Assembly: GCA_943788985.1 (NCBI GenBank)
Contig: CALSSJ010000010.1
Location: forward strand, 160,001 to 224,000
Reading direction: 5' to 3'
From: an uncultured Lentisphaerales bacterium
GTDB lineage: Bacteria > Verrucomicrobiota > Lentisphaeria > JABSQK01 > UBA12247
Length of the DNA: 64,000 nt
The position numbers and the translations under genes were made by a program. This document shows, piece by piece, positions 40,278 to 63,308 of this stretch. The notes beneath the pieces were generated by a model, which made no database searches, was not told where the DNA came from, and saw only the letters and a list, made by a program, of their open reading frames with translations. Positions within the stretch are counted from its first letter, which is position 1, and every line of letters begins with the position of its first letter.

Positions 40278-40285
40278 GCCCGCAG

Positions 40286-41176: not shown

Positions 41177-41209
41177 TAATTTTGCGAAGCGAGGCAGGCA
41201 CTTTAGGTC

Positions 41210-43072: not shown

Positions 43073-43277
43073 ATAGAGGCTCCAGACTTAGGACCTTCTT
43101 AAACTACACACCGAATGGTCAGCGACAACCCCAACTGACGGCGGTCGCTAGCAAAGCTTGTAGTACCCTAGCTAGAAGTGATTGGATCCTAGTTGCATGC
43201 AGCTGGACGCTATGTATACTTTTTGGTTGGCATATCAAACAGATGGTTTACATGCGGATCAGCGCGGAGGCGAGAGG

Positions 43278-45467
43278 ATGAAATTCCTAGGAATAGTGAC
43301 AGCGATATTGGTTGCGATGTTCGCAACTGGGGGAGAGGAGAGGGAAGCGTCGCAGCTGAGCGATACGGTGATTATTGGGGATGCCGCGGCGGTGATGGCG
43401 CTTTCTGGTTCTGGGGCGGTGTTGGAGACGGCAGCGATCCGCACGCAGTCCTATGATGACGTGAATCGCGTGCTGCGGCGCGTGCCTGGCGTCTATGTGC
43501 GTGAGGAGGATGGCTTTGGGCTGTTCCCGAACTTGAGCCTGCGCGGTGTGGACACGAACCGCAGCAGCAAGCTGACGATGATGGAGGACGGGATCCTCAC
43601 GGCGCCCGCGCCGTATTCTGCGCCTTCGGCCTACTATTCCCCAACAGTTGGGCGCATGAGCGGCGTGGAGGTGCTAAAGGGCTCCAGTCAAGTGCGCTAT
43701 GGACCGCATACAACGGGCGGGGCGATCAACTACCTATCTACGCCGATTCCAGAAGCGGAGCAGGGCTATTTAAAGCTGTCGCTGGGCACTGACGAAGAGA
43801 TGCGGATTCACGGGCACTACGGGACTGTCGTCGAGACGGAGCTGGGCCGTGTGGGCTTGTTGGTGGAAGGCTACTACCGGCAGGCGGGGGGCTTTCGGAT
43901 TATTGATGGCGTGGATGGCGAAACGATCAATCGTGACGATACGGGCTTCGAGAATATGGAGCCGATGTTGAAGCTGAGCTGGGAGCCGAAGACGTACCGG
44001 TACCAGCAGTTCGAGCTGAAGCTGGGCTACACGGATCGCGTGGCGAATGAGACCTACCTGGGCCTGACCGATGCGGACTTCGCAAAGGATTCGACGCGTC
44101 GCTACGCAGCGACGCGCTTTGATCAGATTGAAGCAGATCACACGCGGAACTATTTGAAGCATGTGATCGACCTGTCGGATACGGTGATGCTGGAAACGAC
44201 GCTGTATCACAACCGCTTACACCGCAATTGGTACAAGCTGAACAAGGTGAATGGGAATGACTTGTCCGGGGCGCTTGCCGCTGGTGGCGCCGATCTGGAT
44301 ACCCTGCGGGGTTTGGCCGCCGGGACGTTTCGGGTGAAGGCGAACAACCGCAACTATGAGCTGTATGGGGCGCAAACGACGGCAAGCTGGGATCTGGACG
44401 GGCATCAGCTGACGCTGGGAGCCCGCTATCACACGGACTGGATTCGGCGCTACCAATGGGAGGATCGCTATACGCAGGACGCCAGTGGCGCGATCACGGG
44501 GATCGAAAGCTTCTACAAGGGCCCCGACAGCGCTGGAGACCGTTGGCAGGAGACGCAAGCGGTGGCGCTGTTTGTCGAAGATGAGATCACGGTGGGACAA
44601 CTGACGCTGACGCCTGGAATTCGCTTTGAGAGCTTGGAGTATGAGCACATCCGTTATGACAATGGAACGCGCGGACGCGGCTCGCTAGGAACCTGGGCAG
44701 CTGGCCTTGGAGCAACCTATGAGCTCGATGAGCAGAACACCGTGTTCGGCGGCATCCACCGCGGGATTTCGACACCGGGCCCGCGTGCGAACCTGGCAAA
44801 TGGGATCGAGCATGAGACGAGCCTGGCGTTGGAGCTGGGCCTGCGCCACGACAATGGCAAGGGATTCAGCAGTGAGCTTGTGCTGTTTCGCAGTGCCTTC
44901 GACAATCTATTCGTGGATGGAAACGTGGGTGGCACGGGATCGGGGGATTCCGACAACGCTGGGAGCGTGATCTCTCAGGGCCTGGAATTGAAGGCGAGCT
45001 ATGATGCTGGCGAGGCCAACGACTGGTCCTTCAGTCAGCCAACCTTTGTCTCGCTTACCGCGACTGACGCGACTCTTGATGGGGACGCAAAGGCAAGTGA
45101 CCCTGAGTCGATCTTTGCCGGTGGGAAGGACGGGAATCGCGTGCCCTATATTCCGCAGCTGCAGCTGACGGTCGGGACCGGAATTGCCTTTGAGCGCTGG
45201 GGGCTGGAGGTCCTGGGGACGTGGGTAGACGAGACTTACACGACAGCGGACAATGTCTCGAACTCGACGACAGATGTCCGGTTTGGTAAGACGGATGATT
45301 ATCTTGTGGTGGATCTGGCCGCATGGTACAGCGTCAGCGAGATCGTGAAAATCACCGGCTCGGTGCGGAACCTTCTCGATGACGAGTATGTCGTAACGAG
45401 GCATCCACATGGTGCTCGTGGGGGCCGTCCTATTTCCGCAATCCTTGGTCTAGAGATTCAGTTCTGA
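43278..45467 (+). CDS. TonB-dependent receptor (FecA-like)
   Basis: Signal peptide, LRRVPGVYVREEDGFGLFPNLSLRG, EVLKGSSQVRYGP, NLLDDEY, terminal Phe. Confidence 0.92.
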   Translation: MKFLGIVTAILVAMFATGGEEREASQLSDTVIIGDAAAVMALSGSGAVLETAAIRTQSYDDVNRVLRRVPGVYVREEDGFGLFPNLSLRGVDTNRSSKLTMMEDGILTAPAPYSAPSAYYSPTVGRMSGVEVLKGSSQVRYGPHTTGGAINYLSTPIPEAEQGYLKLSLGTDEEMRIHGHYGTVVETELGRVGLLVEGYYRQAGGFRIIDGVDGETINRDDTGFENMEPMLKLSWEPKTYRYQQFELKLGYTDRVANETYLGLTDADFAKDSTRRYAATRFDQIEADHTRNYLKHVIDLSDTVMLETTLYHNRLHRNWYKLNKVNGNDLSGALAAGGADLDTLRGLAAGTFRVKANNRNYELYGAQTTASWDLDGHQLTLGARYHTDWIRRYQWEDRYTQDASGAITGIESFYKGPDSAGDRWQETQAVALFVEDEITVGQLTLTPGIRFESLEYEHIRYDNGTRGRGSLGTWAAGLGATYELDEQNTVFGGIHRGISTPGPRANLANGIEHETSLALELGLRHDNGKGFSSELVLFRSAFDNLFVDGNVGGTGSGDSDNAGSVISQGLELKASYDAGEANDWSFSQPTFVSLTATDATLDGDAKASDPESIFAGGKDGNRVPYIPQLQLTVGTGIAFERWGLEVLGTWVDETYTTADNVSNSTTDVRFGKTDDYLVVDLAAWYSVSEIVKITGSVRNLLDDEYVVTRHPHGARGGRPISAILGLEIQF

Positions 45468-46090
45468 TTTTACTCCGCACGCTTCTTGTCCTCGTCACTC
45501 TGGCGTTGGTTGCGAACTGCGCACCGGCGCGGCCCGTGGTGCTGTTTATGGGAGACAGCCTGACCGCTGGTTATGGTGTGGACCCAGATGAGGCCTACCC
45601 AGTCGTCGTGGCTGCTGGGTTGAAAGAGCAGGGCGTGGCGGCGCGCGTGATCAATGGCGGCGTGAGTGGGGAGACGACCGCCGGCGGGCGGACCCGGATT
45701 GGGTGGCTGATGAAGCAGCAGGTAGATGTCCTGGTGCTCGCACTGGGGGCCAACGATGGCCTGCGTGGTGTGGCGCCGGAGGCGTCGGCGAAGAATTTGA
45801 GTGCGATCATCGAGTTGGCTCGTGAGGCGAACCCGAGAATTAAGATCTTGTTGGCTGGGATGAAGGTCCCGCCCAACATGGGTGCGGAGTTCTCAAAGAA
45901 GTTCGAGGCGATTTTTGCGGAGATTGCGAAGGAGGATGAGGTGGCGTTTCTACCCTTCTTATTGGAGGGGGTAGGCGGGGTCGACGCGATGAACCTAGCG
46001 GATGGGATTCACCCGAATGCTGCGGGGCAGCGAGCGATCGCCGCGCTGGTTTTGCCGAAGTTGCTGCCGCTGCTGGGGAGAGCGGAGTAA
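45464..46090 (+). CDS. SGNH arylesterase/thioesterase (TesA-like); start uncertain
   Basis: GDSLTAGYG, NGGVSGETTAGG, LGANDGLRG, DGIHPN. An in-frame signal peptide extends back to CTG 45464. Confidence 0.88.
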   Translation: MILLRTLLVLVTLALVANCAPARPVVLFMGDSLTAGYGVDPDEAYPVVVAAGLKEQGVAARVINGGVSGETTAGGRTRIGWLMKQQVDVLVLALGANDGLRGVAPEASAKNLSAIIELAREANPRIKILLAGMKVPPNMGAEFSKKFEAIFAEIAKEDEVAFLPFLLEGVGGVDAMNLADGIHPNAAGQRAIAALVLPKLLPLLGRAE

Positions 46091-46357
46091 GCCGAGCGAG
46101 TGGGCCGGTCCGAACGGATTGCCTCGCGATGCCAAGCCTAGGCGTAATAGGAGAAGTAGGATCAATGTCCGTTAACGCGCCTGCCGCGTTAGAGTGCGTA
46201 ACCTGATGAATGTGACAGCGTTAGATACGTCTCTGGCGCGTCAGAATCCTGCCTAGGATACAGCTAAAATTGTGAACTCCGACGGGCTTCGCCGTTACCC
46301 ATTTCTACACCAAATTGCCCTTTGGACGACCCAATCAACAGATCGCGATGGGCTAAC

Positions 46358-47599
46358 TCAGCCGAAGTCGTCGAAGCTGATCATATCGCGTTCTACACCG
46401 AGGCTGTCGAGCATGTTCTCGACGGCACTAAGCATCATCGGCGGGCCACAGAGGTAGTACTCGCAGTCCTCTGGAGCGTCATGATCCCGGAGGTAGTTCT
46501 CGAACGCCGCGGTATGAATGAAGCCGCGCATCCCGGTCCAGTTGTCCTCGGGCATGGGCTCCGAAAGGGCCACGTTGAAGGTGAAGTTCGGGAACTCCTT
46601 CTCAATGGCGCGAAAGTGGTCGTCGTAGAACATTTCGCGCAGGGAGCGGGCTCCATACCAATAGGAAACTTTGCGGCCGGTTTTGAGTGTGTGAAAGAGA
46701 TGGAAGATGTGCGAGCGCAATGGCGCCATACCTGCACCACCACCGATGTAGACCATCTCGCGCTCTGTCTCTCTGATGAAGAACTCTCCGTAGGCACCGG
46801 AGATGGTGACCTTATCACCTGGCTTCCGGCTGAAGACGTAGGAGGAGGCGAGGCCTGGGTTTACATCCATGAAGCCGCCTTTGGCGCGGTCGAAGGGCGG
46901 CGTAGCGATGCGAATGTTCAGCATCACGATGTTGCCCTCGGCCGGGTGGTTGGCCATGGAGTAGGCCCGGATGACTTCTTCGTTGTTGACCGTCTTGAGG
47001 CCCCACATTTTGAACTTGTCCCAGTCGCCGCGGTACTCTTCATCAATATCAAAATCTTCGAAGGATGCTTCGAACTTGGGGACTTCAATCTGAATGTAGC
47101 CACCGGATTCGAAGGGGAGGGTCTCACCTTCGGGGAGCTTGACGACGAATTCTTTGATGAAAGTGGCCACGTTGTCGTTGGAGACTACTTCACATTCCCA
47201 CTTGTTGATCGAGAAGATCTCAGCAGGAATCTCGATCTCCATGTCTTCTTTGACCTTGACTTGGCAGGAGAGGCGCCAGTTCTCACGCTCCTCCTTGCGA
47301 TTGATGTGGCTTTTCTCGGTGGGGAGAATTTCGCCACCACCGCTCTTGACCTGGCATTTGCAGACGCCGCAGGTGCCGCCGCCACCACAGGCTGACGGGA
47401 GCAGGACGCCGTTCGATGAGAGGGTGTTGAGCAGGGTGGTGCCCGCTGGGACCTCGAGAGTCTTGCTGGCGTCACCGTTGATCAGGATATTGACGGCACC
47501 CTTGTTGACGAGTTTCGACTCGGCGATGAGGATGGCGATGGTCAGCGCGACTCCGACTGCGGTCAGAATGAGGATGCTGGCGATAATAGTAGTTGTCAT
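46358..47599 (-). CDS. nqrF: Na+-translocating NADH:quinone reductase subunit F
   Basis: [46 protein letters not shown], terminal DDFG. Confidence 0.97.
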
Positions 47600-47623
47600 G
47601 AGTAAGCTCTGCCTGAAGTCGTG

Positions 47624-48247
47624 CTATTGCGCTAGATTCATGCCGGCGAAGGCCATGAAAGCCATGGATATCAAACCGGTCACAAGCATGGTGATCCCAA
47701 GGCCGCGAAGGCCGACTGGGATGTTTGAGTACCGAAGTTTCTGTCGGATTGCGGCCAGGGCCATGATGGCAATTGCCCAGCCAAGGCCGGAAGCGAAACC
47801 AAACTCCACAGATTGAACCAAGGTGTATTCGCGCTCCCACATGAACAGGGATGCGCCGAGGATGGCGCAGTTCACGGTAATGAGCGGGAGGTAGACGCCG
47901 AGCTTGTTGTACAGGCCCGCAGAGAACTTCTCGATGAACATCTCGATGATCTGCACAAACGCTGCGATGACCGCAATGAAGGCAATGAAGTTGAGGAAGC
48001 TGAGATCGACGCCTGGAAGACCAGCCCAGGCGAGTGCACCATCACGAAGCAGGAACTCACCAAGTGCCCAGTTCAAGGGGGTAGCGAGGGTCAGGACGAA
48101 GATCACTGCTAAGCCGAGATCCATTGCGGTCGAGACCTGCTTGGAGCAAGCGAGGTAGGTACACATCCCGAGAAAGAATGACAGTAAGATATTCTTGACG
48201 AAGATCATCTCGATGATGAAATTCAAATGGTTTCCAATGTCGCCCAT
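47624..48247 (-). CDS. nqrE: Na+-NQR subunit E
   Basis: [32 protein letters not shown]. Confidence 0.95.
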
Positions 48248-48250
48248 GAT

Positions 48251-48886
48251 CTAACTCTCCTCTTGTGGACTGAGGGTTCGTTGCACCCAGATGATCAGGC
48301 CGAGCAGAATAAAGGCGCCTGGGGCTAGGACCATCATGCCGTTGTTCGAGTAGCCGAGCTCGTAGGCTTCTGCAGGAATGACTTTGACGCCCATCACGGA
48401 GCCGGAGCCGAGTAGCTCGCGAGCAAAGCCAACGAGCGCGATGATGAATGCGTATCCGAGCCCGTTGCCGAGACCGTCAAGCAGCGATGGCCAAACTTTG
48501 TTGCCCATGGCAAATGCCTCGAGACGTCCGAGAACAATGCAGTTGGTGATGATCAGTCCGACGAATACGGATAGCTGGAGCGACATGTCGTAGGCGAAGG
48601 CTTTGAGCAACTGGTCCACGAGAATCACCAAGGTGGCGACGACGATCATCTCGATGATGATCCGGACCTGACCGGGAATCAACTTGCGGATCAATGAGAC
48701 GATGATGTTGGAGCCACAAACCACAGCGATTACAGCCAAGCCCATGACAATGGAAGGCTGGAGCTTGGCGGTGACGGCCAGTGCGGAGCAGATTCCCAAA
48801 ACCTGAATGGTAATGGGGTTGTTATCACTAAACGGGTCGGTAAAGACCTTTTTATTCTCGTCCGAGAAGAGTTCGCCGGATGCCAT
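48251..48886 (-). CDS. nqrD: Na+-NQR subunit D
   Basis: NNPITIQVLGICSALAVT, LSVFVGLIITNCIVLGRLEAFA. Confidence 0.95.
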   Translation of the reverse strand: MASGELFSDENKKVFTDPFSDNNPITIQVLGICSALAVTAKLQPSIVMGLAVIAVVCGSNIIVSLIRKLIPGQVRIIIEMIVVATLVILVDQLLKAFAYDMSLQLSVFVGLIITNCIVLGRLEAFAMGNKVWPSLLDGLGNGLGYAFIIALVGFARELLGSGSVMGVKVIPAEAYELGYSNNGMMVLAPGAFILLGLIIWVQRTLSPQEES

Positions 48887-48888
48887 GG

Positions 48889-49671
48889 CTACCTATCTCC
48901 CTTTCTTATCTTCTCAAAGTAGGAACCGTATGCCTGCAAATAAAGCTTGAGCATGTCAGTGACGCCGTCGCTGGTGATGGTCGCCCCGCTGATGCCGTCG
49001 ACTTCATGCAAGGAGTCTTCGTCTGCCATTCCCGGCTTCATTACCTTTACGGATTGGAATGTGCCTTCGATGTCACGAACGGCCTTGCCGACGAAGTTCT
49101 GCTGGAACCAAGGCTCGGTTATCTCTGCGCCGAGGCCTGGGGTTTCCTTATGGGAGTAGAAGGTGATGCCGCGGAGCGTGTTGAGGTCGCTGTCGAGTGA
49201 GACATAGCCAAAGATGCGTCCCCAGAGGCCGTCACCAACAATCGGGATGGCATAGGCGGCAATGGTGCCGTCGTCGCCACGAAGCTGATAGACAGGGAGC
49301 TGGATGCCAGCGGTCTCTTCTTCCGAGAGGACGGTGCCTTTCTCTTCGCTCAAGAGCAGCTTGTACTGGTTCTGGAGCTTCTTGGCGAGATCGAGCTTGG
49401 TGATATCTGCGCCCTCAATGGCCGTCCCGGTGCTGTCAACGACGACGCTCTCGATTGTGGTGTAGGCTTTAGTGATGCCAGCAGCAGTGGGCTTGGCACC
49501 CAAGTCCACATTAAAGGCCTTGAGGATGTTCCGCTGCTTGTCCAGTTTGACGTTGGCCTGCTTGCGGGACTTGAGCCCCTCAGAGGCAGCGGACAAGAGC
49601 AGGGAGCTGATCACCAAGATAATCCCGGTGAAGAGCAAGACCTGGATACTTGATTTTTCAGGCTTCGACAC
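48889..49671 (-). CDS. nqrC: Na+-NQR subunit C
   Basis: GDGLWG, HKETPGLGAEI, FMN attachment motif VDGISGATITS. Confidence 0.95.
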   Translation of the reverse strand: MSKPEKSSIQVLLFTGIILVISSLLLSAASEGLKSRKQANVKLDKQRNILKAFNVDLGAKPTAAGITKAYTTIESVVVDSTGTAIEGADITKLDLAKKLQNQYKLLLSEEKGTVLSEEETAGIQLPVYQLRGDDGTIAAYAIPIVGDGLWGRIFGYVSLDSDLNTLRGITFYSHKETPGLGAEITEPWFQQNFVGKAVRDIEGTFQSVKVMKPGMADEDSLHEVDGISGATITSDGVTDMLKLYLQAYGSYFEKIRKGDR

Positions 49672-50836
49672 GTTTCATCCTCCAGGCCATGTGGCGGGAA
49701 ATCACGAAGTAGTCAATGAGCGGCGCGAAGGCGTTCATGAACAAGATTGCGAGCATCATGCCTTCAGGGAAGGCTGGATTAAGAGTACGGATGACGATGG
49801 CGAGGAAGCCGATCAGAAACCCGTAGATCCATTTTCCGGTGTTGCTCTGGGCGGCTGAGACCGGATCGGTGGCCATGAAGACGAGGCCGAAGGCAAAACC
49901 GCCGCTGACTAAGTGGTAACAGAATGGTAGCGCGTTAATGGCGGTGTTATCCTTGCATGCCTGATTGAGCAGGAAGCAGGTGATAAAGGCGCCGATGAGA
50001 ACGCCGAGCATGGTGCGCCAACTGCCGATCCCGGTTGCGACCAAGTAGACCGCGCCCAGCAAACAGCAGAGGGTGGATGTCTCACCGATGGAGCCCGGAA
50101 TAAGCCCAAGGAAGAGATTGGACCAGCCACCGAAAGCTCCGCTGACGCGATCGACGACTTGGACACCGTCTTGCGCAGCTGCGACGAGTAGGGGAGTGGC
50201 ACCGCTAACACCATCGACGCCATCCTTTACGACTCGCCAGACCTGATCGCCGGAAATCTGAGCGGGATAGGCAAAGAAGAGGAAGGCACGAGCGGTGAGA
50301 GCAGGGTTGAAGATATTCATCCCAGTGCCACCAAATACTTCCTTACCAATGACGACACCAAAGCTGATACCGACAGCTACCTGCCAGAGCGGTATGGTGG
50401 GGGGTAAGACAAGCGGGAATAGTAGACCAGTAACCAAGAATCCCTCGTTGATCTCATGTTTGCGGACCACTGAGAAGACCAACTCCCAGATGCCACCCAC
50501 AGCGTAGCTACAGATGACGATTGGCATGACGCGGAGAGCGCCTTCCCAGAGGCACCGGTGGATATCGGTGGGCTGCCCCGGGGCGATGCCGGTCAAGTAT
50601 TGATAGCCAGCATTGTAGATGCCGAACAGCAGGCAAGGCATTAGGGCAACGATAACGCTGGCCATGTAACGCTTGCTGTCGATGGAGTCCCGCACATGGC
50701 ACCCACTCGCGGTGCGCTCGCGGGATACGAACAAAAAGGTCTCTTTTGCTTCGAAAAGCGGATAGAGAAGCTCTAGTTTGCCGCCCTTCTCGAAAAGAGG
50801 CCGCGCTTTGTCAAAAGCGTCTTGAATAAATCGCAC
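49658..50836 (-). CDS. nqrB: Na+-NQR subunit B
   Basis: HVRDSIDSKR, KEVFGGTGMNIFNPAL, DGVSGATPL, FMATDPVS, PEGMMLAILF. Confidence 0.96.
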   Translation of the reverse strand: MRFIQDAFDKARPLFEKGGKLELLYPLFEAKETFLFVSRERTASGCHVRDSIDSKRYMASVIVALMPCLLFGIYNAGYQYLTGIAPGQPTDIHRCLWEGALRVMPIVICSYAVGGIWELVFSVVRKHEINEGFLVTGLLFPLVLPPTIPLWQVAVGISFGVVIGKEVFGGTGMNIFNPALTARAFLFFAYPAQISGDQVWRVVKDGVDGVSGATPLLVAAAQDGVQVVDRVSGAFGGWSNLFLGLIPGSIGETSTLCCLLGAVYLVATGIGSWRTMLGVLIGAFITCFLLNQACKDNTAINALPFCYHLVSGGFAFGLVFMATDPVSAAQSNTGKWIYGFLIGFLAIVIRTLNPAFPEGMMLAILFMNAFAPLIDYFVISRHMAWRMKRVEA

Positions 50837-50853
50837 TCAATTACCTCTTGGTC

Positions 50854-52222
50854 TCAAGCTTCTGCATATAAAAATTCGAGGCCTTCGCGAATAATCTTCT
50901 GCACCGGCGTCTTAGACGGGCAGACATATTCACAAAGCGCCATTTCTTCCTCAGTGACCTCGTAGATCCCGAGGCCAACCATCTCGTCGATGTCCTGAAT
51001 CATGCAACTCTTGACAAGAAACAAAGGAAACATCTTCATCGGTAACACCTTGCCATAGGCGTCGGAGGCAAATAGGGCACGATGGCCACCCCACACCTTG
51101 GTGTCGAGCCGATGTTTCTGCTTGGGCAGCCACGGCGACACATAGGTGCGAAACATACTGTGCTTGCGGAAGCCGGGTTGCATCCAGCCAACGAACTCTG
51201 AATCGATAGACTCAGGAATGAGGGTGACCATGTCATCGTAGAGGCCCACAAATCCCTCAGCGCCAATATCGGTGCCGGTCAGCACGTCTCCGGAAATGTA
51301 GCGGATGGTCTCATCGGCTACCTGGCCCCGAATCACGTTCTGCAGTGGGGCACCATTGATGGTGCGAAAGTAGCGGCGGTCCAAAGCGGAGGTCCCAGCG
51401 ACGCTGACGATCTTTTCCGGCGAGACGCGGCCCAGCACAAAAAGCTTGCCGAGCTGAATCAGCCCTTGGACGGTGATGGTCCAGACGATGTCCTGACGGC
51501 TGCGAACTGGCGCAATGTGGTGAATCTGAACGCCGACAACGCCAGCAGGATGCGGCCCGCTGAATTCGTGTATTTGGCAGTTCTTGGCGCCGCTAAAGGC
51601 GCTGCAGACGGAACCGGTGCCCGGCACGGAGAGATGAACCGCGCCAAGCGTGAGCTTGGCGCAGGCATCAATGCCAGCCTGAAAGTATTCTTCGTTGCCT
51701 TCGACCAGGACGGCGGGGTCGGGGGCAAGTGGCGCGGAGGCAATCGCAGAGACAAAGATGTCACGCGGTGTGTGCTTGGCGCGAGCTACATGTCCAAACG
51801 GACGCTCTCGAAAGAGTGCGAGTTGGCCGCTTTTGACTAGGGTCTCGCGAAGCTGTTCGCTGGATTTCCCCGGGATTGCGGCGGCTGACGTGGCCTCGAA
51901 GCTCACAGCTTCGTTCTTGCCGTCGGACTCAATGTTGACGGCAAGTAGCACGCGGCGATCGCCGCGCACAACGCCGCTGACTTCGCTGACAGTGCCGCTG
52001 ATCGGGGAGGTGAATACCTGTGATTCGTCGTCCTTGGCGTGGAACAACGGGGGTACCAGCAAGAACGCTGTCGCCGTCGCGAACGAGAAGGCGCGGCTTG
52101 ATGCCGATGAAGTCAGCAGGTCTGACCGAGGCAACGGTCGCGAGCGCGCCGTCGACAACTTCAGGATTGCTGTCGCCGGCGATGGGTACGTCATACCCTT
52201 GCTTTAGTGTAAATCTTGCCAT
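50854..52222 (-). CDS. nqrA: Na+-NQR subunit A, one extra base in the G5 run at 52049-52053
   Basis: MARFTLKQGYDVPIAG...GIKPRLLVRDGDSVLAGTP continues as LFHAK...FTSPISGTV, GPHPAG, CEYVCPSK once one C is removed. Confidence 0.92.
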
Positions 52223-52226
52223 GGGC

Positions 52227-52442
52227 TTAATCCTCGTCGCTAGTCGACTGGTTGGGACAAATTTCGCCGGCTTCCTTCCCACAGAACGGGCAGCTGTCCT
52301 CTCCCTGCTGGCGCAGGAATTCATTGTTGGTGCTGCAGGTGCCGTGAAATTGGCCGTCTTTCAGCAGCAGGATGCGTGCGCACAGTCCAAGCATGAACAG
52401 TGTCATCGCAATTAGAGTAACAACGAAGGTAGTTTGCATCAT
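52227..52442 (-). CDS. Small Cys-rich single-TM protein (NqrM-like maturation factor)
   Basis: 71 aa: TM, then KDGQFHGTCS...CPFCG...C; immediately upstream of nqrA. Confidence 0.7.
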   Translation of the reverse strand: MMQTTFVVTLIAMTLFMLGLCARILLLKDGQFHGTCSTNNEFLRQQGEDSCPFCGKEAGEICPNQSTSDED

Positions 52443-52443
52443 G

Positions 52444-53100
52444 CTAGTCACGCAGTTGCTCCTTCTCGCCCGGCGGCACATCATCGAGGCGGGCATGCTG
52501 GCTGCGCTGCAAGGCCCGGATGTAGGCGACAATTGCCCAGCGGTCTTCCACTGCGACTTGGTGGGCATAGCCTCCCATATTTTCGTTCTCGCTGCCGTTG
52601 GTGATGATGTTGAAAAGCTCGCCATTTGGCCGAGCACGGCTTCCAGCTGTGTGGTAGCTGGTCGGCATCATCGGGCCCTTGGTCGTGATGATGCCGTCGC
52701 CATGTCCGGCTTCCCCATGACAAACGCTGCAGTATATGCCATAGCGCTCGCGACCACGCTCGAGGAGGGCTGCATCGACTGTGACTTCGTCGGGGAAGCC
52801 CGTAATGAATGTGCCGGTCGCTGCGTCGGAGGTCCTGCCGCGATAGTAATCGGACTGCTCTTCGAGGAAATCAGCCCGATCATCCTCGGTGCGGCCCCAA
52901 ACAACGGTGTGTTCGATACGCGGGCGCATTGCCCGGCCGTCGGCAAAGATCTCAGCGTGTGACTGGGCGTTATATTTAAACTGCTGGTCCATGTTTTGGT
53001 TCAGGTGCACCGGGGGCTTGCGCGAGACACGTTCGCGGCAGCCTGTAATCATCAGCAAGGCGACCGTACTCAGCAACAGTGTGGTAAATAGCCTACTCAT
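52444..53100 (-). CDS. actE: Alternative complex III monohaem lipoprotein ActE
   Basis: Lipobox ITGC, NMDQQFKY, FADGRAMR, CSVCHG, MGGYA...DRWAIVAYIRALQRSQ. Confidence 0.9.
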   Translation of the reverse strand: MSRLFTTLLLSTVALLMITGCRERVSRKPPVHLNQNMDQQFKYNAQSHAEIFADGRAMRPRIEHTVVWGRTEDDRADFLEEQSDYYRGRTSDAATGTFITGFPDEVTVDAALLERGRERYGIYCSVCHGEAGHGDGIITTKGPMMPTSYHTAGSRARPNGELFNIITNGSENENMGGYAHQVAVEDRWAIVAYIRALQRSQHARLDDVPPGEKEQLRD

Positions 53101-53644
53101 TGGGAATCAGCACCTCAACGTTTTTTCCGCCGATTGACTGCAGGAACGCGTAGCATTTTTTAGCGTCGAATCGCTCGTCCTCAGCCTCGATGCTAATAAA
53201 GAACCCATTATCCGTCGCCTTGCGAAAGTTGTCGGACTCAAAGACGGGGTGCGTATACCAAGGCAGGAAGTTCATGATAAACATGCCGATGACCGTGCCG
53301 AAGCAGGCACCGAGAATAGTCAGCTCAAAGGTAACCGGGACATAGGCCTGGAAGGCGAAGTATGGCTTGCCGGAAAGATTCATGGCGTAGCCGTGGTTGT
53401 GCACCCACCATTGGAGGGCGAAGGCAATGCTACCACCGGCGATACCACCAGCTGCCGCGACCCAGCCAAGGATTGACTTCTTTAGTCCCATAGCGGCGTC
53501 GAGACCGTGCACGGGAAAGGGTGAGTGGCAGTCGTACTTGTCGTAGCCAGCGTCGCGAACCTTCTCGGCTGCGTGGAGCAATACCGCCGGGTTGGCGAAC
53601 TCGGCCAAGACGGCAACTGCTTTTTGATTAGAGGATGCGCTCAT
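53093..53644 (-). CDS. actD: Alternative complex III subunit ActD (DUF3341)
   Basis: HSPFPVHGLD, GKPYF, VPVTFELTIL. Confidence 0.92.
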   Translation of the reverse strand: MSASSNQKAVAVLAEFANPAVLLHAAEKVRDAGYDKYDCHSPFPVHGLDAAMGLKKSILGWVAAAGGIAGGSIAFALQWWVHNHGYAMNLSGKPYFAFQAYVPVTFELTILGACFGTVIGMFIMNFLPWYTHPVFESDNFRKATDNGFFISIEAEDERFDAKKCYAFLQSIGGKNVEVLIPNE

Positions 53645-53654
53645 TGTCCGTAGC

Positions 53655-55055
53655 TCAATGTTCGTCGTGATAATTGTGCGGATCGGCTTCCGGCATGACG
53701 CCCTTGACTTCAGCAATGGCTATGACAGGCACGAAACGCAGGAACAGCAGGAACAGGGTAAAGAAGAGGCCAAAGGAGCCTACAAACATGCCGACGTCGA
53801 TGATGGTCGGTGAGAAGTAATCCCAGCTTGAAGGCATGTAGTCCTGAGAGAGAGAAGTGATGGTAATCACGAAGCGCTCGAACCACATCCCAATATTAAC
53901 GAAGATGGAGACTACGAAGAGGATGACCAGATTGCGGCGAGCGAAGCGGAACCAGAAGACCTGTGGAATGATGACGTTACAAGTGACCATGATCCAGTAG
54001 GCCCAGGCATACTGATCGGAGGCACGCAACAGGAAGATGCCACTTTCGTAGGGGCTACCGCTATACCAGGCGATGAAGAATTCGCAGGAATAGGCGTAGC
54101 CGACGAGCATGCCCGTGAGCATGATGATCTTGGCCATGTTGTCTAAGTGGCGCATCGTGATGAATGATTGCAGACCATAGATCCAGCGCACCACCACCAT
54201 GAGGGTGATCACCATAGCAAACCCTGAGAAGATCGCGCCCGCGACAAAATATGGCGGGAAGATGGTGGTGTGCCAGCCAGGAAGAATACTGACCGCAAAG
54301 TCAAAACTCACGACGGTGTGTACGGAAAGCACGAGGGGGGTGGCGATGCCGGCGAGAATCAAGTAAGCCTTCTCGTAGTTACTCCAGTGACGGTTGCTTG
54401 AGCGCCAGCCGAGGGCGAGCAGACCGTAGATGATCTGGCGCCAGCGATTGGTCGCACGGTCGCGCATGGTGGCCCAGTCCGGGATCAGCCCGACGTACCA
54501 GAATAGCAGCGAGACGGTGAAGTAGGTGTTGACAGCGAACACATCCCACAGCAGTGGGCTGCGAAAGTTCGGCCACATCGCCATCTGATTAGGCAAGGGG
54601 AAGAGGTAATAGACGGCCCAGACGCGGCCGACGTGAATCCCGGGGAATACAAGGGCACAGACGACTGCAAACAGGGTCATGGCTTCGGCGGCGCGGTTAA
54701 TGGACGTACGCCATTGCTGTCGCAGGAGGAAGAGGATGGCGGAAATGAGTGTACCGGCGTGGCCGATACCTACCCAAAACACGAAGTTCACAATCGCCCA
54801 GCCCCAGCCAGCCGGGTTATTCAGCCCCCAGACCCCTGTGCCTTTCCAGAACAACCAGAAAATCTGGAGTCCGAGTAAACCTGCGACGCTCGCAGAGATC
54901 GTAAAGGCGACGTACCAGCCGATTGGGGTCTTAGCTAGCTCCTGCTCGGCGATGCGACCGATTGTGTCGGACACCGAATGGAAGTCGTGATTCCCCTGAA
55001 CCAAGGGCTCTTGTGTTGTATCTGTTGCAGCAGCCATCTCAGCCATCTCAGCCAT
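53655..55055 (-). CDS. actC: Alternative complex III quinol-binding subunit ActC (NrfD family)
   Basis: [59 protein letters not shown]. Confidence 0.95.
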
Positions 55056-58000
55056 TCAGTCTTGGGTTGGGATTCCGCAGCCTAGCCATGTAAGTGGTCC
55101 TCGGACGGGTCAGCAATTCGGGCAATAGGGCGTAGTTTCGCTCGTTTGCCTTCCATGCTGAAACATGGCTAGTCTTGTCGTTGATATCGCCAAAGGCAAT
55201 TGCGCCAGCAGGACATGCCTGCTGACAGGCAGTCGTGACATCGCCGTCTTTGAGGGCGCGCCCATCTACTTTGGCAGAGATGCGCGCCTGACTGATGCGT
55301 TGTACACAGTAGGTGCACTTCTCCATGACCCCGCGGAAACGGACAGTGACGTCGGGATTCTGCGAGAGCTTCTGGGTCGTAGTCTCAGCCGTCTCGCCAC
55401 GCACGTTGGTCTCGGGGCCGTTCTTGGTGAAGTTAAAGAAGTTGAAGCGTCGGACCTTGTAAGGGCAGTTGTTTGCGCAATAGCGCGTCCCGATGCAGCG
55501 GTTGTAGGTCATAGCGTTCAGGCCGTCCTTTGTGTGGCTGGTCGCACCGACCGGACAGACCTGCTCGCACGGTGCCATCTCGCAATGCATGCAGGGTACG
55601 GGCTGAACGCGCAATTCCGGATCGTCTTCGTCGCCTTTGAAGTAGCGATCGGTCCGAATCCAGTGTAATTCACGACCGTAGCCAGCATTCTCTTTGCCGA
55701 CGACAGGGATGTTGTTCTCGCTCTGACAGGCGGTCACACAGGCGTTACAACCGGTGCAGACATTCAGATCGATTGCCATGCCCCACTGATTGCCCTCGGT
55801 GTATTCATGCTCTTTCCAGAGGGCGCCGACCGTTGGGTTATGCACAGGTGGCGTCAGAGCGCTTTCGCCTTTCTCAGCGAAATTGAGGAGATCCGCTTCG
55901 AGAATCAAGGGCCGGTCGCCGCTGATTTTCTTGACCAGCTCATTGCCGTCCATGTTATGGTGCTTTTGCGTGGTTGAAAGCGGATAAGTGCCAGATGTTT
56001 TGGTAACCTTGGCTTTGCCGCCGGAGTAGGCAGCAGAGGTTGCAAGTGGGTAGGCATTGACGCCTGCGCCTTCTGCAACTGCACCAAGGTTTCGGCCGAA
56101 GCCGAGGTCTACGGAGACAGATTTATCCGAATGGCCAGGCAGAACAAATACCGGGAGAGTGAGTGTGGTGCCAGCGGTAGTCACGGTCACGAGATCTTCT
56201 TGACTCACCCCAAGGTCACGGGCCGTTGCCGGACTGACAATAGCGGCGTTGTCCCAGACCAGCTTGGTCACTGGCGATGGCAGTTCCTGCATCCAGCCAT
56301 TATTTGCAAACCGGCCGTCGTAAAGCGTGGGCGACGCAGCGAGTGCAATTTCGAAATCGGGGCCAGCGGTAAGCGTCTGGCGCTTCAATTGGGCGGTCAG
56401 TGATGTTTCGTTGATCGAGGCGTAGGGATCGCCGTACTTGGTGCCTTCGGCGACGCCGTTGTGCAGAATTGATTTCCAGGCAGCATCATTCTTGCCGACC
56501 GTAGCGCGGCAGAGCTCATAGCCGCTTTCAGCGTTGCCAAGTAGCAGACTTAGTGCTTCCAGTTCACTGATGGAATGGTGCAGAGGGGCGATGAGTGGCT
56601 GGGTAATGCCGATGGTCCCATCGGTAGTGCGCGGAGTGCCCCAGCATTCCAGCTCGAGGCTGCGTGGCAGGTGCCACTTACAGAATTCGCTGGTCTCGTC
56701 GTAGTAGTGACTCAAGTGGACCGAATGCTCGATCTTTTCGAGGGCCTCGGCAAACTTAAGATCAGCCGGGGCAGTCAAAACAGGATTGGGGCCAACAATG
56801 ACAAGCGTTGTGATTGCGCCGCTATTCATCGCCGTGACCAGTCCCGTCAACTCAGTGAGTGAGGAATCACGAGCGTCGGGGGCTTCGACGTAGGAGAGGG
56901 TGCCATCCTGAGCCGCGTTGCCCAGCGCATCATTCAAGGCTGCGATCACTGCATGGACGGAAGCGCTTTGGCCGCGGCCAGCTAGGACTACGGAGTGTTT
57001 GCCGGCTTGGGCGAGGTCAGCGGCAACGGCACCAATCCAAGTGTCGGTGACTCCTGCGGGGAGCGGAAGTTCTGGGATTGCGGCGAGTCCGGGGATGCGC
57101 TTGGGTGTGAAACCATCTCCGGACTTGGGGGCGGCTAGCCGACGGGCTAGTGCCGCGACGACGGCTGGGATGTCCGAACGGCGAACGCGGACGCGATGGT
57201 CAGCCATTCCGCCGGTGACGCTAAACGAGTGTTCCGCGACATAGAGGCGGTTCATGGCGTCCTTGCGACCATGGACTCGCCGGCCGTCTGCAAAGGCCTT
57301 GGTGTGCCGTACTGCATCGGTTTCGAGGTGAAGAAAGTCCGAATCGAGCGCGAGGATGACTTTTGCGTCTGTCAGGTCGGGGACGCCACGAACAGCCTTG
57401 CCCATGGCCGCCTTCTGGCCATCGTGAATGTTGGAATCGCTGACGGGTGCCCAGGCTGCGGTAATGGCAGCGGGGTACTTCGCCTTAAGTTTGACCATCT
57501 CAGCCTGAATCGCAGCAGAGTGATACGGGTCTACCAGAACGGCAAGGCCCAGGCCATTGGGGGCGACGGGATGTGCCCTCCAATCTTCCAGGAATGCGTC
57601 CCAAGTAGAATCTCCACCTGTGTAGGTGACGTCACGTGGGCGATCGGGATCAGCGAGAGTAAGAATTGATGCGAGCTCAAATGAGCTGACGCCGCCTGCG
57701 CTGCCTGGATGGCTGGGGTTGGGCTCGATCTTAGTGGGACGGCCTTCGTGGCTCTCAACCAAGACGCCGACTGCCTCACCGTCGCGGGTAAGCGTGGTGG
57801 CAAAGTAGACGGGCTTGCCGGGAACATATTCGGGGGGCTGGGTGCTGTAGGGAACGATCGTCTGCACGGGGCGTCGACAGCTGGTCAAGCCAGCCAGGCC
57901 CATGGAGGCTCCCATCAGCTTCATGAAGCTGCGACGATCAATTTCGCCAGCGTTATCACCAGATCCAATAGGATCCGCGGGCCCAGTGGGTGTTGCGACG

Positions 58001-58083
58001 CTGCGGTCCTGACCGCTGAGTGCGTCGTCGGCGGCACGCCACAGGGTCGTTTTAGCAGGGCTTTCCTGATTCATCGATGACAT
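55048..58083 (-). CDS. actB: Alternative complex III subunit ActB (molybdopterin-reductase-like + Fe-S)
   Basis: Tat/lipoprotein leader DRRSFMK...[41 protein letters not shown]. Confidence 0.95.
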
Positions 58084-58724
58084 GCGGCACAGTCCTCTGG
58101 GGGGCTCAACTCTTTTTCTTGGATAATTGCTTCGGCAGCGTTGTATTGGCCCTTCGCAGGCTGCCATTCCATGTCCGTCACACTTGTCTCGGTGAGGTCG
58201 CGGATATGTTGGTGCGGATGGCGATGGCAATCGAGGCACCAGCCCATGCTGAGGGTCTCACGCTGGGTGACGATCTCCTGGCGGTCGATATCACCGTGGC
58301 AACTGGTGCAGCCAACTCCAGCTTTCAAATGAACGCTATGGTCGAAATAGGCGTATTCCGGCAACTTGTGGACGCGGACCCAATTGATAGGCTTGCCAGT
58401 TTCATAGCTTTCGCGAACTGGTGCAAGCGCCTCGCTGTTCTTTTTGATTGAACGATGGCAGTTCATGCAGGTTTGTGCTGGTGGGATATTTGCCTCGTGC
58501 GACTCTTCGATACTCGCATGGCAGTATCGGCAGTCGATTCCAAGATCGCCGGCATGCACCTTATGACTGAACGGAACGGGTTGTTCCGGCTGATAGCCGA
58601 CATCCGTATATTTCGGGGAGCCGAACCACCATAGGAGTCCTGCGATAAGCAATGGTGCTGGTGCGGCCGCGTGGATTACCACTAATGTCACCGGCGTCGT
58701 CCATGTAGGAAAAATCTGTGCCAA
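58071..58724 (-). CDS. actA: Alternative complex III pentahaem cytochrome ActA
   Basis: GYQPEQPVPFSHKVHAG and five CxxCH (CRYCH, CMNCH, CTSCH, CLDCH, CAACH). Confidence 0.95.
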   Translation of the reverse strand: MAQIFPTWTTPVTLVVIHAAAPAPLLIAGLLWWFGSPKYTDVGYQPEQPVPFSHKVHAGDLGIDCRYCHASIEESHEANIPPAQTCMNCHRSIKKNSEALAPVRESYETGKPINWVRVHKLPEYAYFDHSVHLKAGVGCTSCHGDIDRQEIVTQRETLSMGWCLDCHRHPHQHIRDLTETSVTDMEWQPAKGQYNAAEAIIQEKELSPPEDCAACHR

Positions 58725-58743
58725 AATATTACCCTCGTACGCG

Positions 58744-59628
58744 CTAAGCGCCGTATCTCCAACGATTAAGACCAGTCATCCCCTCTAGGATGATAACGCT
58801 GAATAGCGCCAGGAGATAGACAATTGAAAATAGAAAGAGGCGGATCTCAGATTGGGCAGTGCGCTCTTTGTAGGCCAAGAGCATCTTCTGCATGAAGATG
58901 ACGCCAAGCACGATTGCGGCTACGACATAAACATAGCCCGTCCCGAACAGGCCGAGTACTAAGGTTACGATCACTAGGGCGATAGAATACCACACCATCT
59001 GCTTCAAAGTGGCGTCAATACCATGGACGATGGGCATCATAGGCAGCTTTACGGTTTCGTAGTCGCTTTTGCGGTAGAGCGCTAGTGCCCAGAAATGCGG
59101 CGGGGTCCAGAGGAAAATAACCAAAAACAGTAACCATGGCTCAATGGCGCTACCATTGGTGGCTGCAGCCCATGAGATGACCGGTGCCATGGCACCCGCT
59201 GCGCCGCCGATCACAATGTTTTGGGCTGTATGTGGCTTCAACAACAAGGTGTAAAACAGGCCGTAAAACAAAATGGTGCCTAGAGCCAGCGCAGCGCTTA
59301 GGATGTTGAAGCGAATAGCAAACAGGGCGACGCCTGCGAGGCCAATAGAAACGGCGAAGGTGAGAGCAGCGCGGCTCGTGATCTCTTTCAGTGGCAGGGG
59401 GCGGCGGTCCTTGGTGCGGGCCATCTGCGCGTCGATATCCCGTTCGAAATATTGATTGAGTGCGTTCGCCGAGCCGCCCGTCATGAACAGCCCGAGCAGC
59501 ACCAAGATTGCGTCCAGCGGCCGTGTCAAGAAGGTTGCTTCCATCACCAGCGCAGCGGCACCAGTGATCACCACCAACAACATGATTGTTGGCTTCGTTA
59601 GCATGAGATACGAACGGACGACTTTCAC
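58744..59628 (-). CDS. ctaB: Protohaem IX farnesyltransferase (haem O synthase)
   Basis: LTKP, NQYFERDIDAQMARTKDRRPLP, YTLLLK, NIVIGGAAGA, WTPPHFWALA. Confidence 0.95.
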   Translation of the reverse strand: MKVVRSYLMLTKPTIMLLVVITGAAALVMEATFLTRPLDAILVLLGLFMTGGSANALNQYFERDIDAQMARTKDRRPLPLKEITSRAALTFAVSIGLAGVALFAIRFNILSAALALGTILFYGLFYTLLLKPHTAQNIVIGGAAGAMAPVISWAAATNGSAIEPWLLFLVIFLWTPPHFWALALYRKSDYETVKLPMMPIVHGIDATLKQMVWYSIALVIVTLVLGLFGTGYVYVVAAIVLGVIFMQKMLLAYKERTAQSEIRLFLFSIVYLLALFSVIILEGMTGLNRWRYGA

Positions 59629-59669
59629 AGCGGCTCTGTCAGGTTTACGGCGAGAAAAATGAAGCAGGG

Positions 59670-59698
59670 AATTTAAGTATCGGACCCGCGTCCGTCAA
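59670..59698 (-). promoter_or_regulatory. Sigma70-type promoter for the ctaB-act-nqr operon
   Basis: TTGACG-17 nt-TAAATT on the minus strand, about 40 nt before the ctaB GTG. Confidence 0.6.
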
Positions 59699-59852
59699 CG
59701 CGGTTTAGACAACATTCTATCCATCAATTCAATTCCCCTACCTAGATTGGCCCTGCCAGCTCGCCAAATTGGGGCGTGAAGTATGGCGTAAAACGACGTG
59801 AGCGCGATCTTGTAGCTATTTGGTCCTCATTTTTGGGAGCGTTCCGTGGCTG

Positions 59853-60713
59853 ATGTCTGCACCTGATCCATCATTTGACCCGCACGAGACAGAGATCGTG
59901 CCGATGTCCCCGTGGCGTGGCATCGACTGGGCGGAGCTCTTTTGCCACCGTGATCTGTTCTGGTTTCTGGTTTGGCGCGAAATCAAGGCTCGATACGCGC
60001 AAAGCATCCTTGGCGTTGGCTGGGCTGTGTTGCACCCGCTCATTCACATGGTGGTATTCACTGTTGTGTTTGGGCGATTGTTGGAGATAGACAGCCAGGG
60101 GCGTCCCTACGCGCTATTCTCATTCGTTGCCTTGGTTCCGTGGACCTACTTCGTGAGTGCGACTAATGCCTCCACGAATAGTCTGGTGGGGAACACCCGG
60201 CTGTTGACGAAGGTCTACATGCCCCGCCTGTTCTTCCCGGCAACGCCAGTGATCGCCAAGCTTATCGACTTCATTATCGCTAGCTGCATGCTTGTTCTGC
60301 TGATGCTCGCCTACCTTGCTACGGGCCATCGTTTTGCCCTGTCCGCCGATCTCTTGGTGTTGCCATTGCTGATCGCAATCATGATGCTCACTGCCCTCGG
60401 ATTGGGGATGTGGCTTTCCGCGCTTGCCGTTAAATACCGGGACGTGCGCTTCGCCCTCGGCTTTATGACACAACTTATGCTGTTCGCGGCTCCGGTTGCC
60501 TGGCCAGCATCCAAGATTCCCGAGACGTACCAGATGTGGTATGGGTTGTACCCAATGGCCGGCGTGATCGAAGGCTTTCGTGCTGCAATCCTGCAGACGC
60601 GCCCTATGCCTTGGGAACTGATCGTGCCGGGTGCCGCCAGCAGTGTCGTCATTTTTGTGGGAGGGCTCGTTGTTTTTCGACGAATGGAACGGTACTTCGC
60701 GGATGTGGCGTAG
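59853..60713 (+). CDS. wzm: ABC-2 polysaccharide export permease (Wzm/RfbA)
   Basis: LVWREIKARYAQSILGVGWAVLHP, LTKVYMPR, YRDVRF, PMAGVIEGFR, MERYFADV. Confidence 0.9.
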   Translation: MSAPDPSFDPHETEIVPMSPWRGIDWAELFCHRDLFWFLVWREIKARYAQSILGVGWAVLHPLIHMVVFTVVFGRLLEIDSQGRPYALFSFVALVPWTYFVSATNASTNSLVGNTRLLTKVYMPRLFFPATPVIAKLIDFIIASCMLVLLMLAYLATGHRFALSADLLVLPLLIAIMMLTALGLGMWLSALAVKYRDVRFALGFMTQLMLFAAPVAWPASKIPETYQMWYGLYPMAGVIEGFRAAILQTRPMPWELIVPGAASSVVIFVGGLVVFRRMERYFADVA

Positions 60714-60870
60714 ACCTGTTTTCTGACGTTTTTCTCCGGAGCCCGTAAGAGCTAGCTTGCTCGTGCGGCCAGCCAATATGCAGCACACAGTTCTCGCAAT
60801 AGGGGAAACTAATTCTATGCTGGAACATATGGGGCTCGCGCGAGGGCCTGTATCTCGCTCGTCATGAGGG

Positions 60871-61947
60871 GTGGAGCGCCGCAATCTTACAGAAACGATT
60901 TCCCGAAAGAAGATTGATAGGTCGCATCCCTCGCACCGGATTGCCCAGCTGGGGCAGTTTGACCAGGCGATGCGGAGCCTGACGCGGGGTGATCATGACA
61001 CGGCGGTTCGAGAGCTATACATAACGCTGCAGCGTGACTAGGATTCTCCCAAACTGCTGTACGCCGCTAGCCTCTGCGCGCTGAATGCCGTTGATGCCGA
61101 GCGAGCGCAGGAGAATCTTGATTCCCTGCGACAGATCGCTCCGGATTCCGGCTTGACCGCACATCTGGGCTTTCTCCGCGATATTAGAAACGGAAACTTT
61201 CAGCGCGCCCTATCAGCTTCAGAGACGCGAAACTCTTTTAGCAGTCAGGAGCTCCCGTTTCTACTGGATAGGGGCATGATTTTTCTGCAGCAAGACGAGC
61301 GTCTGGCGGCCGAAAGTAGCATACGCGCGGCCATGGTGCATGCAACATTTTTCGATTTTCAGCGACTGGGGGCAGTGGACGCGTTGAGTCGATTGCTGGT
61401 CAGTTCGGGCCGCTCAAAGGAGGCGACAGCTGTCGATGTGACGGTTCACGAGGGTGCCCCTGCGTCTGCGCAGCTTCACGCGAATCATGCGATTGCGCCT
61501 GAGCACTCCGGGAACGGAGCGGAGGCCAAGTCGGCGTTACTGAGCGCATTGGCGGTGAGCCCGGACGATCCGGTGGCTCTTTATTTGGTGCCCCATGATT
61601 CTGGCTCAGAGCGACGGATGGAGCACGGCCTGCTGTTGATCGGTGAGCACAGCAATGAATGCTGGGCAGTAACTCTCATGGCGGATCGATACACGATCGA
61701 CGGAGAGGAACACAACTATGTTGTTGTTGCCTCGCGTTTTGCTTCAAGGCATCATTGCGAGCTTGCATGCATGGAGGGCCGGCGGGTCTTGAACGACCTA
61801 AACACCAGAAATGGAGCTCTCGTGAATGGTGAGAAGCAGCGCACGGTCGTGCTGAAAGACGGCGACTTGATTGAGTTGTGCGACACCAAGCTGTGTCTTT
61901 ATTCAAGTTCACTCAAAAGCCTGGCTAGAAGTCCGACAGGCTCCTAA
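60871..61947 (+). pseudogene. TPR + FHA domain protein with internal stop
   Basis: Frame open from GTG 60871, broken by TAG at 61039-61041, then continuing into the 61153 ORF. TPR-like helices, then ASRHHC...DLNTRNGALVNG...LKDGDLIEL. Confidence 0.6.
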
Positions 61948-61956
61948 AGTGGTGAA

Positions 61957-63114: not shown

Positions 63115-63132
63115 GCAAAGCCTGTTCTGTTA

Positions 63133-63160
63133 TTGAATTATTTGAGGCGATTCGTATTAT
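63133..63160 (+). promoter_or_regulatory. Candidate promoter for tRNA-Thr
   Basis: TTGAAT-16 nt-TATTAT, 20 nt upstream of the tRNA. Confidence 0.45.
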
Positions 63161-63180
63161 ACCGTTTTGCCTCGCGAAGC

Positions 63181-63256: not shown

Positions 63257-63308
63257 GCGTGCTGGTCAGGATGACCGGCTAATTTCCACTAGATCGCGGA
63301 TGTCGGCC

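Follow-up and report, generated by a model that had tools for sequence, protein, structure and literature searches.

Adjoining genes for alternative complex III and Na+-NQR in an order of uncultured marine Lentisphaeria

Gene content of the act-nqr unit and its partner operon

The window analyzed here is the whole of a 64,000-nucleotide (nt) stretch (positions 160,001 to 224,000, forward strand, of contig CALSSJ010000010.1, GenBank assembly GCA_943788985.1) from an uncultured Lentisphaerales bacterium, whose genome is called G000 below. The minus strand of the window carries 13 consecutive genes (46358–59628) in which ctaB and five genes of alternative complex III (ACIII), actABCDE, are followed by a gene for a protein of 71 amino acids (aa) and then by nqrABCDEF, the genes for the six subunits of the sodium-translocating NADH:quinone oxidoreductase (Na+-NQR or NQR; Table 1). 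Window proteins were assigned to families with Pfam and NCBIfam, and these assignments and the coordinates bear out the gene identities and the tight same-strand packing that a first-pass annotation had proposed from the sequence. No two genes are more than 24 nt apart, the widest gap being that between nqrE and nqrF. The actE TAG is separated by 1 nt from the ATG of the small open reading frame (ORF), and the TAA of the latter by 4 nt from the nqrA ATG, exactly as first described. Since no gap exceeds 24 nt and the actE/small ORF junction measures 1 nt, the 13 genes most likely form a single transcript in this genome, with translational coupling at that junction.

All six Nqr proteins exceed an NCBIfam equivalog cut-off, NqrA only from residue 49 owing to a frameshift that is discussed below, and NqrB and NqrC both contain SGAT, the flavinylation motif of these two subunits. 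ActB has Molydop_binding, Fer4 domains at 819–934 and QrcB/QrcC-like matches; its likely start at 58083 gives a protein that begins MSSMNQ and continues into DRRSFMKL, a twin-arginine (Tat) signal. The ActC protein is 60–74% identical to ActC of other ACIII loci, and the window actD product is the sole PF11821 (ActD) match of the genome.

No actF gene was found in the window. That the ACIII gene set of the unit is incomplete had been overlooked: the actF orthologue lies on another contig (C27) with sco-coxBACD, in a second respiratory operon (L109 in Table 1) that holds the genome's only haem-copper oxidase. The 13-gene unit by itself does not encode a complete ACIII, and the complex can be completed by the actF of C27; because that gene sits with sco-coxBACD, ACIII here is still linked, as usual, to a haem-copper oxidase. 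The ActF orthologue is 466 aa long, has no Pfam match and is weakly similar to ActC (20–25% identity), and subunit II of the caa3 oxidase has a fused cytochrome c domain. The 109-aa one-helix protein encoded in the same operon is possibly ActG-like. On contig C32 of this genome (L110; 6818–8462, minus strand), a short NrfD-like ORF of 189 aa lies beside a gene for a 4Fe-4S dicluster protein, and the pair looks like a fragmented part of another quinone-linked complex.

The genome, which is 83.6% complete, contains one NQR, one ACIII and one caa3 oxidase, and at that completeness no cytochrome bd, cytochrome b or 49-kDa subunit of NADH dehydrogenase 1 (NDH-1) was found in it. This gene content would give a linear chain that runs from NADH through Na+-NQR, quinone, ACIII and caa3 to O2. 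Two operons would encode the chain, with ACIII subunits supplied by both, and the same operons would provide its helpers, namely haem O synthase, an NqrM-like factor, SCO and polyprenyl synthase.

That nqrA occupies two frames in this assembly had been overlooked. Residues 1–59 (start 52222) match positions 2–55 of PF05896 (NQRA_N) in one frame, the remainder is the ORF 50854–52194 in another frame (TIGR01936 matches from residue 49 of this ORF), and the frame changes at a run of five Cs that has one extra C. Four runs were compared over window positions 46000–60000. The extra C at 52049 is missing in DNA run X4 (contig depth 8.86) and in RNA run X15 (depth 5.57), and it is kept in run X1 (depth 4.16), which may be the source of this assembly; nqrA is in a single frame in every relative in which both halves were matched. 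Because X4 and X15 do not have the extra C and the relatives are in frame, the shift probably reflects an error, or an allele that is rare in one sample, and not a property of the lineage. Programmed +1 frameshifting at the C run was considered and set aside, as the extra base is missing in the relatives and in other runs of the same population.

Table 1. Coordinates of the act-nqr unit (window numbering) and of the second respiratory operon (numbering of contig C27)
Feature	Coordinates	Strand	Assignment and remarks
Sigma-70-like promoter match, TTGACG-17-TAAATT	59670..59698	minus	Upstream of ctaB; 9/12 score; candidate only
ctaB, haem O synthase	58744..59628	minus	PF01040; NF003349 292.8 bits (cut-off 246); TIGR01473 273.7 (cut-off 210.3)
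actA, pentahaem cytochrome c subunit of ACIII, 217 aa	58071..58724	minus	Multihaem cytochrome families; five CxxCH motifs
actB, molybdopterin-like and 4Fe-4S subunit	55048..58083	minus	ORF extends to 58239; start at 58083 inferred
actC, NrfD-like membrane quinol-binding subunit	53655..55055	minus	PF03916, E 7e-23
actD	53093..53716	minus	PF11821 ActD, E 7e-63; likely start ATG 53644
actE, monohaem lipoprotein cytochrome c	52444..53100	minus	Cytochrome c domain; one CxxCH; N-terminal LLMITGC lipobox
nqrM-like gene, 71 aa	52227..52442	minus	One transmembrane helix, four invariant Cys
nqrA, 1-nt frameshift in this assembly	50854..52222	minus	TIGR01936 373 bits; PF05896
C5 run behind the nqrA frameshift	52049..52053	minus	Seen in the sequence
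nqrB	49658..50836	minus	NF003756 535.4 bits (cut-off 414); SGAT motif at 211
nqrC	48889..49671	minus	TIGR01938 201.3 bits (cut-off 144); SGAT motif at 228
nqrD	48251..48886	minus	NF006777 300.7 bits (cut-off 235)
nqrE	47624..48247	minus	TIGR01940 285.4 bits (cut-off 247.55)
nqrF	46358..47599	minus	TIGR01941 653.9 bits (cut-off 295)
Second respiratory operon (L109, G000 contig C27)	5003..12306	minus	Polyprenyl synthase, actF, 109-aa one-helix gene, SCO1, caa3 subunits II, I, III, IV

Beyond nqrF lies a convergent GDSL lipase gene (45506–46090, plus strand). The flanks of the unit (37349–45467 and 59820–63998) contain genes for a GntR-type regulator, a DnaJ-TPR protein, a XerC/D-like recombinase, a sulfatase and a TonB-dependent receptor, as well as a GDSL lipase, an ABC-2 permease, an FHA-domain protein, a glycerate kinase and a GH20 protein. 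By their predicted products these neighboring genes point to a polysaccharide-degrading heterotroph.

The small gene upstream of nqrA

The gene between actE and nqrA had been labeled nqrM-like, and this label is upheld by profile comparison. The role of NqrM was reportedly described by Kostyrko and colleagues in 2016, and the protein reportedly consists of a single transmembrane helix followed by four conserved Cys. Among 20 homologues of the small protein, the N-terminus is hydrophobic and C36, C51, C54 and C62 are invariant. PF04400 (NqrM) has no match over its cut-off in this genome and matches neither the window protein nor any of the 20 family members; a scan of 301 genomes of the phylum with it gave no match, but the control genomes gave none either, which makes that scan uninformative. 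Searches with Pfam and NCBIfam of the small protein and 19 relatives returned weak zinc-ribbon-like noise only. The ESM Atlas placed an NqrM cluster at rank 29 (score 0.87), a lead that was later confirmed by other means. When a profile built from these homologues was run against 1.84 billion proteins, 480 representatives reached E ≤ 0.001; of the best 150, 80 were scanned in Pfam, and one of these (P0256; profile E 1.8e-9) belongs to PF04400, with 42.3 bits against a cut-off of 22. Alignment of the family with P0256 by hhalign gave a probability of 98.3% (E 1.7e-14), with all four Cys aligned.

In 19 of 21 loci nqrA comes immediately after the small gene; the remaining two gave a match to the C-terminal part of nqrA only, about 300 nt away. 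Stand-alone nqr operons headed by the small gene are found in family f9, a sister family of the same class, and in G009, a genome of the same order as G000. The protein family takes in members titled Bacteroidetes and Chitinophagaceae. In metagenome contigs fetched with such proteins, a convergent nqrF is found about 1.1 kb away in 32 of the 52 loci whose downstream flank is 1.5 kb or longer; apbE lies between the small gene and nqrF in both of the two loci checked. At L143 (3995–6486) and L199 (3980–6517) the homologues stand tail-to-tail with apbE, which follows nqrF, and at L164 one strand carries nqrCDEF, a gap and then the small gene. In G000 the ApbE genes are far from the nqr operon (contigs C18, 105677–106372, and C21, 67959–68924). 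To judge from its profile match and gene neighborhoods, the small gene is a divergent nqrM homologue that travels with nqr, rather than a linker of ACIII to NQR. It would serve NQR maturation, as NqrM does; according to passages of a recent review (PMC12174285), insertion of the intramembrane [2Fe-2S] center into NQR appears to require NqrM.

Distribution of the gene arrangement

The order to which this genome belongs is represented by 15 genomes in the collection. ActD was detected in 14 of them, all but G009, and nqrA in 13, the exceptions being G008 (88% complete) and G010 (92% complete). The first-pass annotation had proposed a synteny search for the actE-nqrM-nqrA order, and adjacency proved to be conserved: wherever a genome of the order has both systems (12 of 12), act and nqr adjoin on the same contig, within about 1 kb, in the order actD-actE-small ORF-nqrA. 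These 12 genomes span five families, and their proteins are 35–58% identical. The actF gene is present in 14 of the 15 genomes and never at the act-nqr locus. At each of the 14 loci examined (13 genomes and G000) a polyprenyl synthase gene comes before it, and SCO comes after it in the 12 loci whose contigs reach that far, with coxII also present in 10 of these.

The distance from the actE stop to the small-ORF start is 1 nt in G000, –4 nt in G001 (family f2), –1 nt in G006 and 16 nt in G003 (both family f4). It is 117–143 nt in four genomes of family f3 and 120–307 nt in four of family f5. The overlapping or abutting codons in four genomes of three families argue for co-expression, as far as this can be read from gene spacing. 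No terminator-like site was found in any of the three long spacers scanned, and the spacer of L006 has one promoter-like site on the gene strand where 0.2 would be expected; promoter and terminator scans of this type carry little weight.

Only G008, G010 and G001 among the genomes of the order gave NDH-1 matches, and the first two of these are without NQR. In G008 a contig (L139; C278, 2–3396) carries actC-actD-actE, a 390-nt spacer with hairpins and nuoB-nuoC-nuoD on the same strand, so that the place after actE is taken by genes for a different NADH dehydrogenase. This favors a functional tie of act to NADH dehydrogenase, although the contig is only 4.6 kb long in a fragmented draft and the evidence is thin. 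In G010 the nuo genes are on a different contig from act.

For comparison, 80 ACIII loci from other lineages were fetched with an ActD alignment. In 71 of them actF follows actD within 2.5 kb, and coxI lies within 8 kb in 51 of those 71. The nine loci without actF comprise five that bear nqr, three with less than 500 bases of flank and one from Zixibacteria (L030). Only these five of the 80 loci have nqr; they are titled Lentisphaeria or Verrucomicrobia, and all duplicate loci of the order, with identical spacers. A ctaB gene in front of actA is no peculiarity of this lineage and occurs in 15 of the 80 loci. One locus titled "uncultured Lentisphaeria" (L072) has actF after actE, and its ActC is near-identical to those of Marinimicrobia loci L035 and L041 and falls among Marinimicrobia sequences in an ActC tree; it is probably a binning or label error. 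In loci of Vicinamibacterales/Acidobacteriota (L034, L036–L038, L042, L045 and others) ActD is flanked only by actC and actF-like genes, and a divergent cox cluster comes next (coxI about 36% identical); actA, actB and actE are missing from this ActD cluster and in some loci are found in a second act cluster nearby.

Within the class, among 201 sampled genomes, all but one weak ActD match come from this order or from family f9 (8 of 8 genomes). The two f9 genomes examined have an unsplit actABCDEF-SCO-coxII-I-III cluster and, on another replicon, a small ORF-nqrABCDEF operon; throughout the eight f9 genomes, ActD is separated from the small ORF by 1.66 Mb or lies on a different contig. In a quick ActC tree (77 rows), the sequences of the order form one group, which includes that of G010 without nqr (SH-aLRT 92, not starred).

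Origin and interpretation of the arrangement

It is probable that the unit is a lineage-specific fusion of respiratory operons, in which the front half of a split act-cox cluster was joined to nqr and which co-regulates a linear aerobic chain. Ancestrally, the nqrM-like-nqr operon would have stood apart from a ctaB-act-cox supercluster that was still whole; in other phyla the act and cox genes are commonly laid out as ctaB-actABCDEF-(small transmembrane gene)-sco-coxBACD. One rearrangement in the ancestor of the order would have cut the supercluster between actE and actF and placed the front half, ctaB-actABCDE, directly upstream of the existing nqrM-like-nqrABCDEF operon, and the back half (actF, the 109-aa one-helix gene, sco and the caa3 genes) would have stayed elsewhere behind a polyprenyl synthase gene. 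Later G010 and G008 would have lost nqr, and G009 would have lost act or never had it. Such a split and join appears to be the most economical reading of the gene orders, from which we infer the direction of the rearrangement.

Several observations weigh against this fusion. The systems are separable, as G010 has actABCDE without nqr, and G009 has the small gene and nqr, with a divergent gene preceding the small ORF, and has no ActD or ActF match. In the f3 and f5 families, with their spacers of 117–307 nt and the one promoter-like site, nqr may keep its own promoter, and a single transcript is not guaranteed there; the co-expression originally put forward is strengthened by the overlapping or abutting codons of the three other families and weakened by the spacers of these two. 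The "one clear promoter" at the head of the unit also fared only in part: the hexamers are present upstream of ctaB, and the match is no better than chance (three sites were found in the scan, against 7.3 ± 2.5 in shuffled sequences, and the promoter type of the organism may differ from the model). RNA contigs from two metatranscriptome studies cover act and nqr genes piecewise, and among the pieces listed none bridges 52203–52447; because contigs cannot show transcript ends, this speaks neither for nor against co-transcription. Finally, the ActC tree places f9 elsewhere, with weak support, and f9 and the order may or may not share one acquisition of ACIII, so the polarity of the rearrangement rests mainly on outgroup phyla.

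Other explanations of the adjacency differ widely in how well they fare. It is hardly credible that the junction is a chimera of assembly or binning, even though the genome is a draft in 48 contigs and 83.6% complete. A check of the sequencing data over 52200–52500 had been recommended, and DNA contigs from two studies bridge the act-nqr junction, one from run X1 (47238–57990) and one from run X4 of a separate study (51506–60000). Moreover, 16 of the 24 listed runs contain at least half of the sampled words of 50000–54000 (these 16 are marine, estuarine or plankton metagenomes, bar one that is coded as an organism), and the same junction is present in eleven other genomes. The adjacency might instead be a retained accident, with act and nqr as separate transcription units and the tight junction a result of mere compaction. 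The longer spacers in eight f3 and f5 genomes, the promoter-like site of L006 and the occurrence of one system alone (nqrA is missing in G008 and G010, and ActD and ActF in G009) would fit this; we nevertheless find it unlikely, as it must accommodate adjacency in every one of 12 genomes in five families whose proteins have diverged to 35–58% identity, stop and start codons that overlap or abut in three of those families, spacers in which no terminator-like site was found (3 of 3 scanned), and a different NADH dehydrogenase, nuoBCD, in the slot after actE in G008.

The gene order could also reflect co-assembly of NQR and ACIII into a physical supercomplex, either as an NADH:cytochrome c module or as a respirasome with caa3. 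Conserved adjacency, coupled stop and start codons and a chain that looks linear, with one enzyme per step, would be indirect points in its favor, and passages of PMC5928083 describe ACIII as forming supercomplexes with caa3/aa3 oxidases. Such a physical union seems improbable all the same: both enzymes use the free quinone pool and need no direct electron path, the intervening gene belongs with nqr alone (as in the stand-alone operons of f9 and G009 and the apbE-nqrF neighborhoods of metagenome contigs), and ActF is encoded with the oxidase, away from the 13-gene unit. In its fullest form, which is equally speculative and to which we give little credence, the split of ACIII may reflect a single NQR-ACIII-caa3 membrane respirasome with ACIII as its hub, the actE/nqrM-like overlap would serve co-translational and co-localized assembly, and the nuoBCD genes of G008 would mark a conserved "NADH dehydrogenase slot." A very improbable reading is reverse electron flow, in which electrons from cytochrome c or quinol would be driven uphill to NAD+ by the sodium gradient. 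Nothing specific points to it beyond the discussion of NQR for reverse transport in nitrifiers in passages of PMC12342949, whereas the sulfatase, GH20, TonB-dependent receptor and glycerate kinase genes of the window form a heterotrophic context, ctaB, sco and caa3 indicate aerobic forward respiration, and no lithotrophic donor system turned up, with no search aimed at one.

The fusion that we favor is best seen against known systems. As described in passages of PMC5928083, ACIII has six conserved Act subunits, oxygen-reductase genes often come after the act cluster, and ACIII and caa3 form a supercomplex. The Rhodothermus marinus type of supercluster described there, actABCDEF(G) with oxygen-reductase genes, shares with G000 the same six Act families, a caa3 subunit II with fused cytochrome c, and SCO; in G000 the cluster is cut after actE, nqr follows, and actF and the oxidase are on another contig. 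The nearest ACIII loci, from Zixibacteria, Ignavibacteria, Caldithrix and Gemmatimonadota, have ctaB in front, as here. The Vibrio-type operon nqrABCDEF-apbE-nqrM (PMC12174285, in the passages that describe it) likewise combines six Nqr subunits with a one-helix, four-Cys gene, but in G000 the NqrM-like gene leads rather than trails and is not recognized by the Pfam NqrM family, apbE is elsewhere (contigs C18 and C21), and five ACIII genes and ctaB lie upstream. Family f9 (G025, G028 and six others) has both systems and the same NqrM-like leader before nqrA, but there ACIII is unsplit and followed by sco-cox, and nqr is on a different contig or 1.66 Mb away.

A chain from NQR through ACIII to an A-type oxidase has been predicted from genome content before, for example in Marinamargulisbacteria (PMC6349859); it comprises the same three complexes, and the passages of that paper that deal with it make no mention of their genes being joined in one cluster. 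For Nitrospirales, passages of PMC12342949 report actABCDE-only modules in which ActF and ActG are missing and a bd-like oxidase lies downstream. Both those act clusters and that of G000 end at actE; here, unlike there, actF is elsewhere in the genome and an NADH dehydrogenase is downstream. The first-pass annotation knew of no described example of act and nqr in one cluster, and a full-text literature search, with subscription papers and supplements outside its scope, likewise found none.

The finding leaves knowledge of how either complex works unchanged. It shows a broken ACIII cluster, each half of which is tied to a different neighbor in the electron transport chain, against the usual oxygen-reductase neighborhood of these genes, and it offers a natural test of whether operon structure tracks pathway order, complex assembly or neither. 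A widespread Lentisphaeria family titled "membrane or secreted protein" is a divergent NqrM that current Pfam and NCBIfam models overlook, which matters for the annotation of NQR maturation genes. The habitat records of the runs that contain 50000–54000 are marine or estuarine, and Na+-NQR is assigned here by sequence family alone. Through the split of actF from its cluster and the fusion of the remainder with nqr, two operons, with complex III divided between them, would encode the whole aerobic respiratory chain of this order of uncultured marine Lentisphaeria. This suggests a simple Na+/H+ aerobic chain, probably without branches, in this group of uncultured marine heterotrophs.

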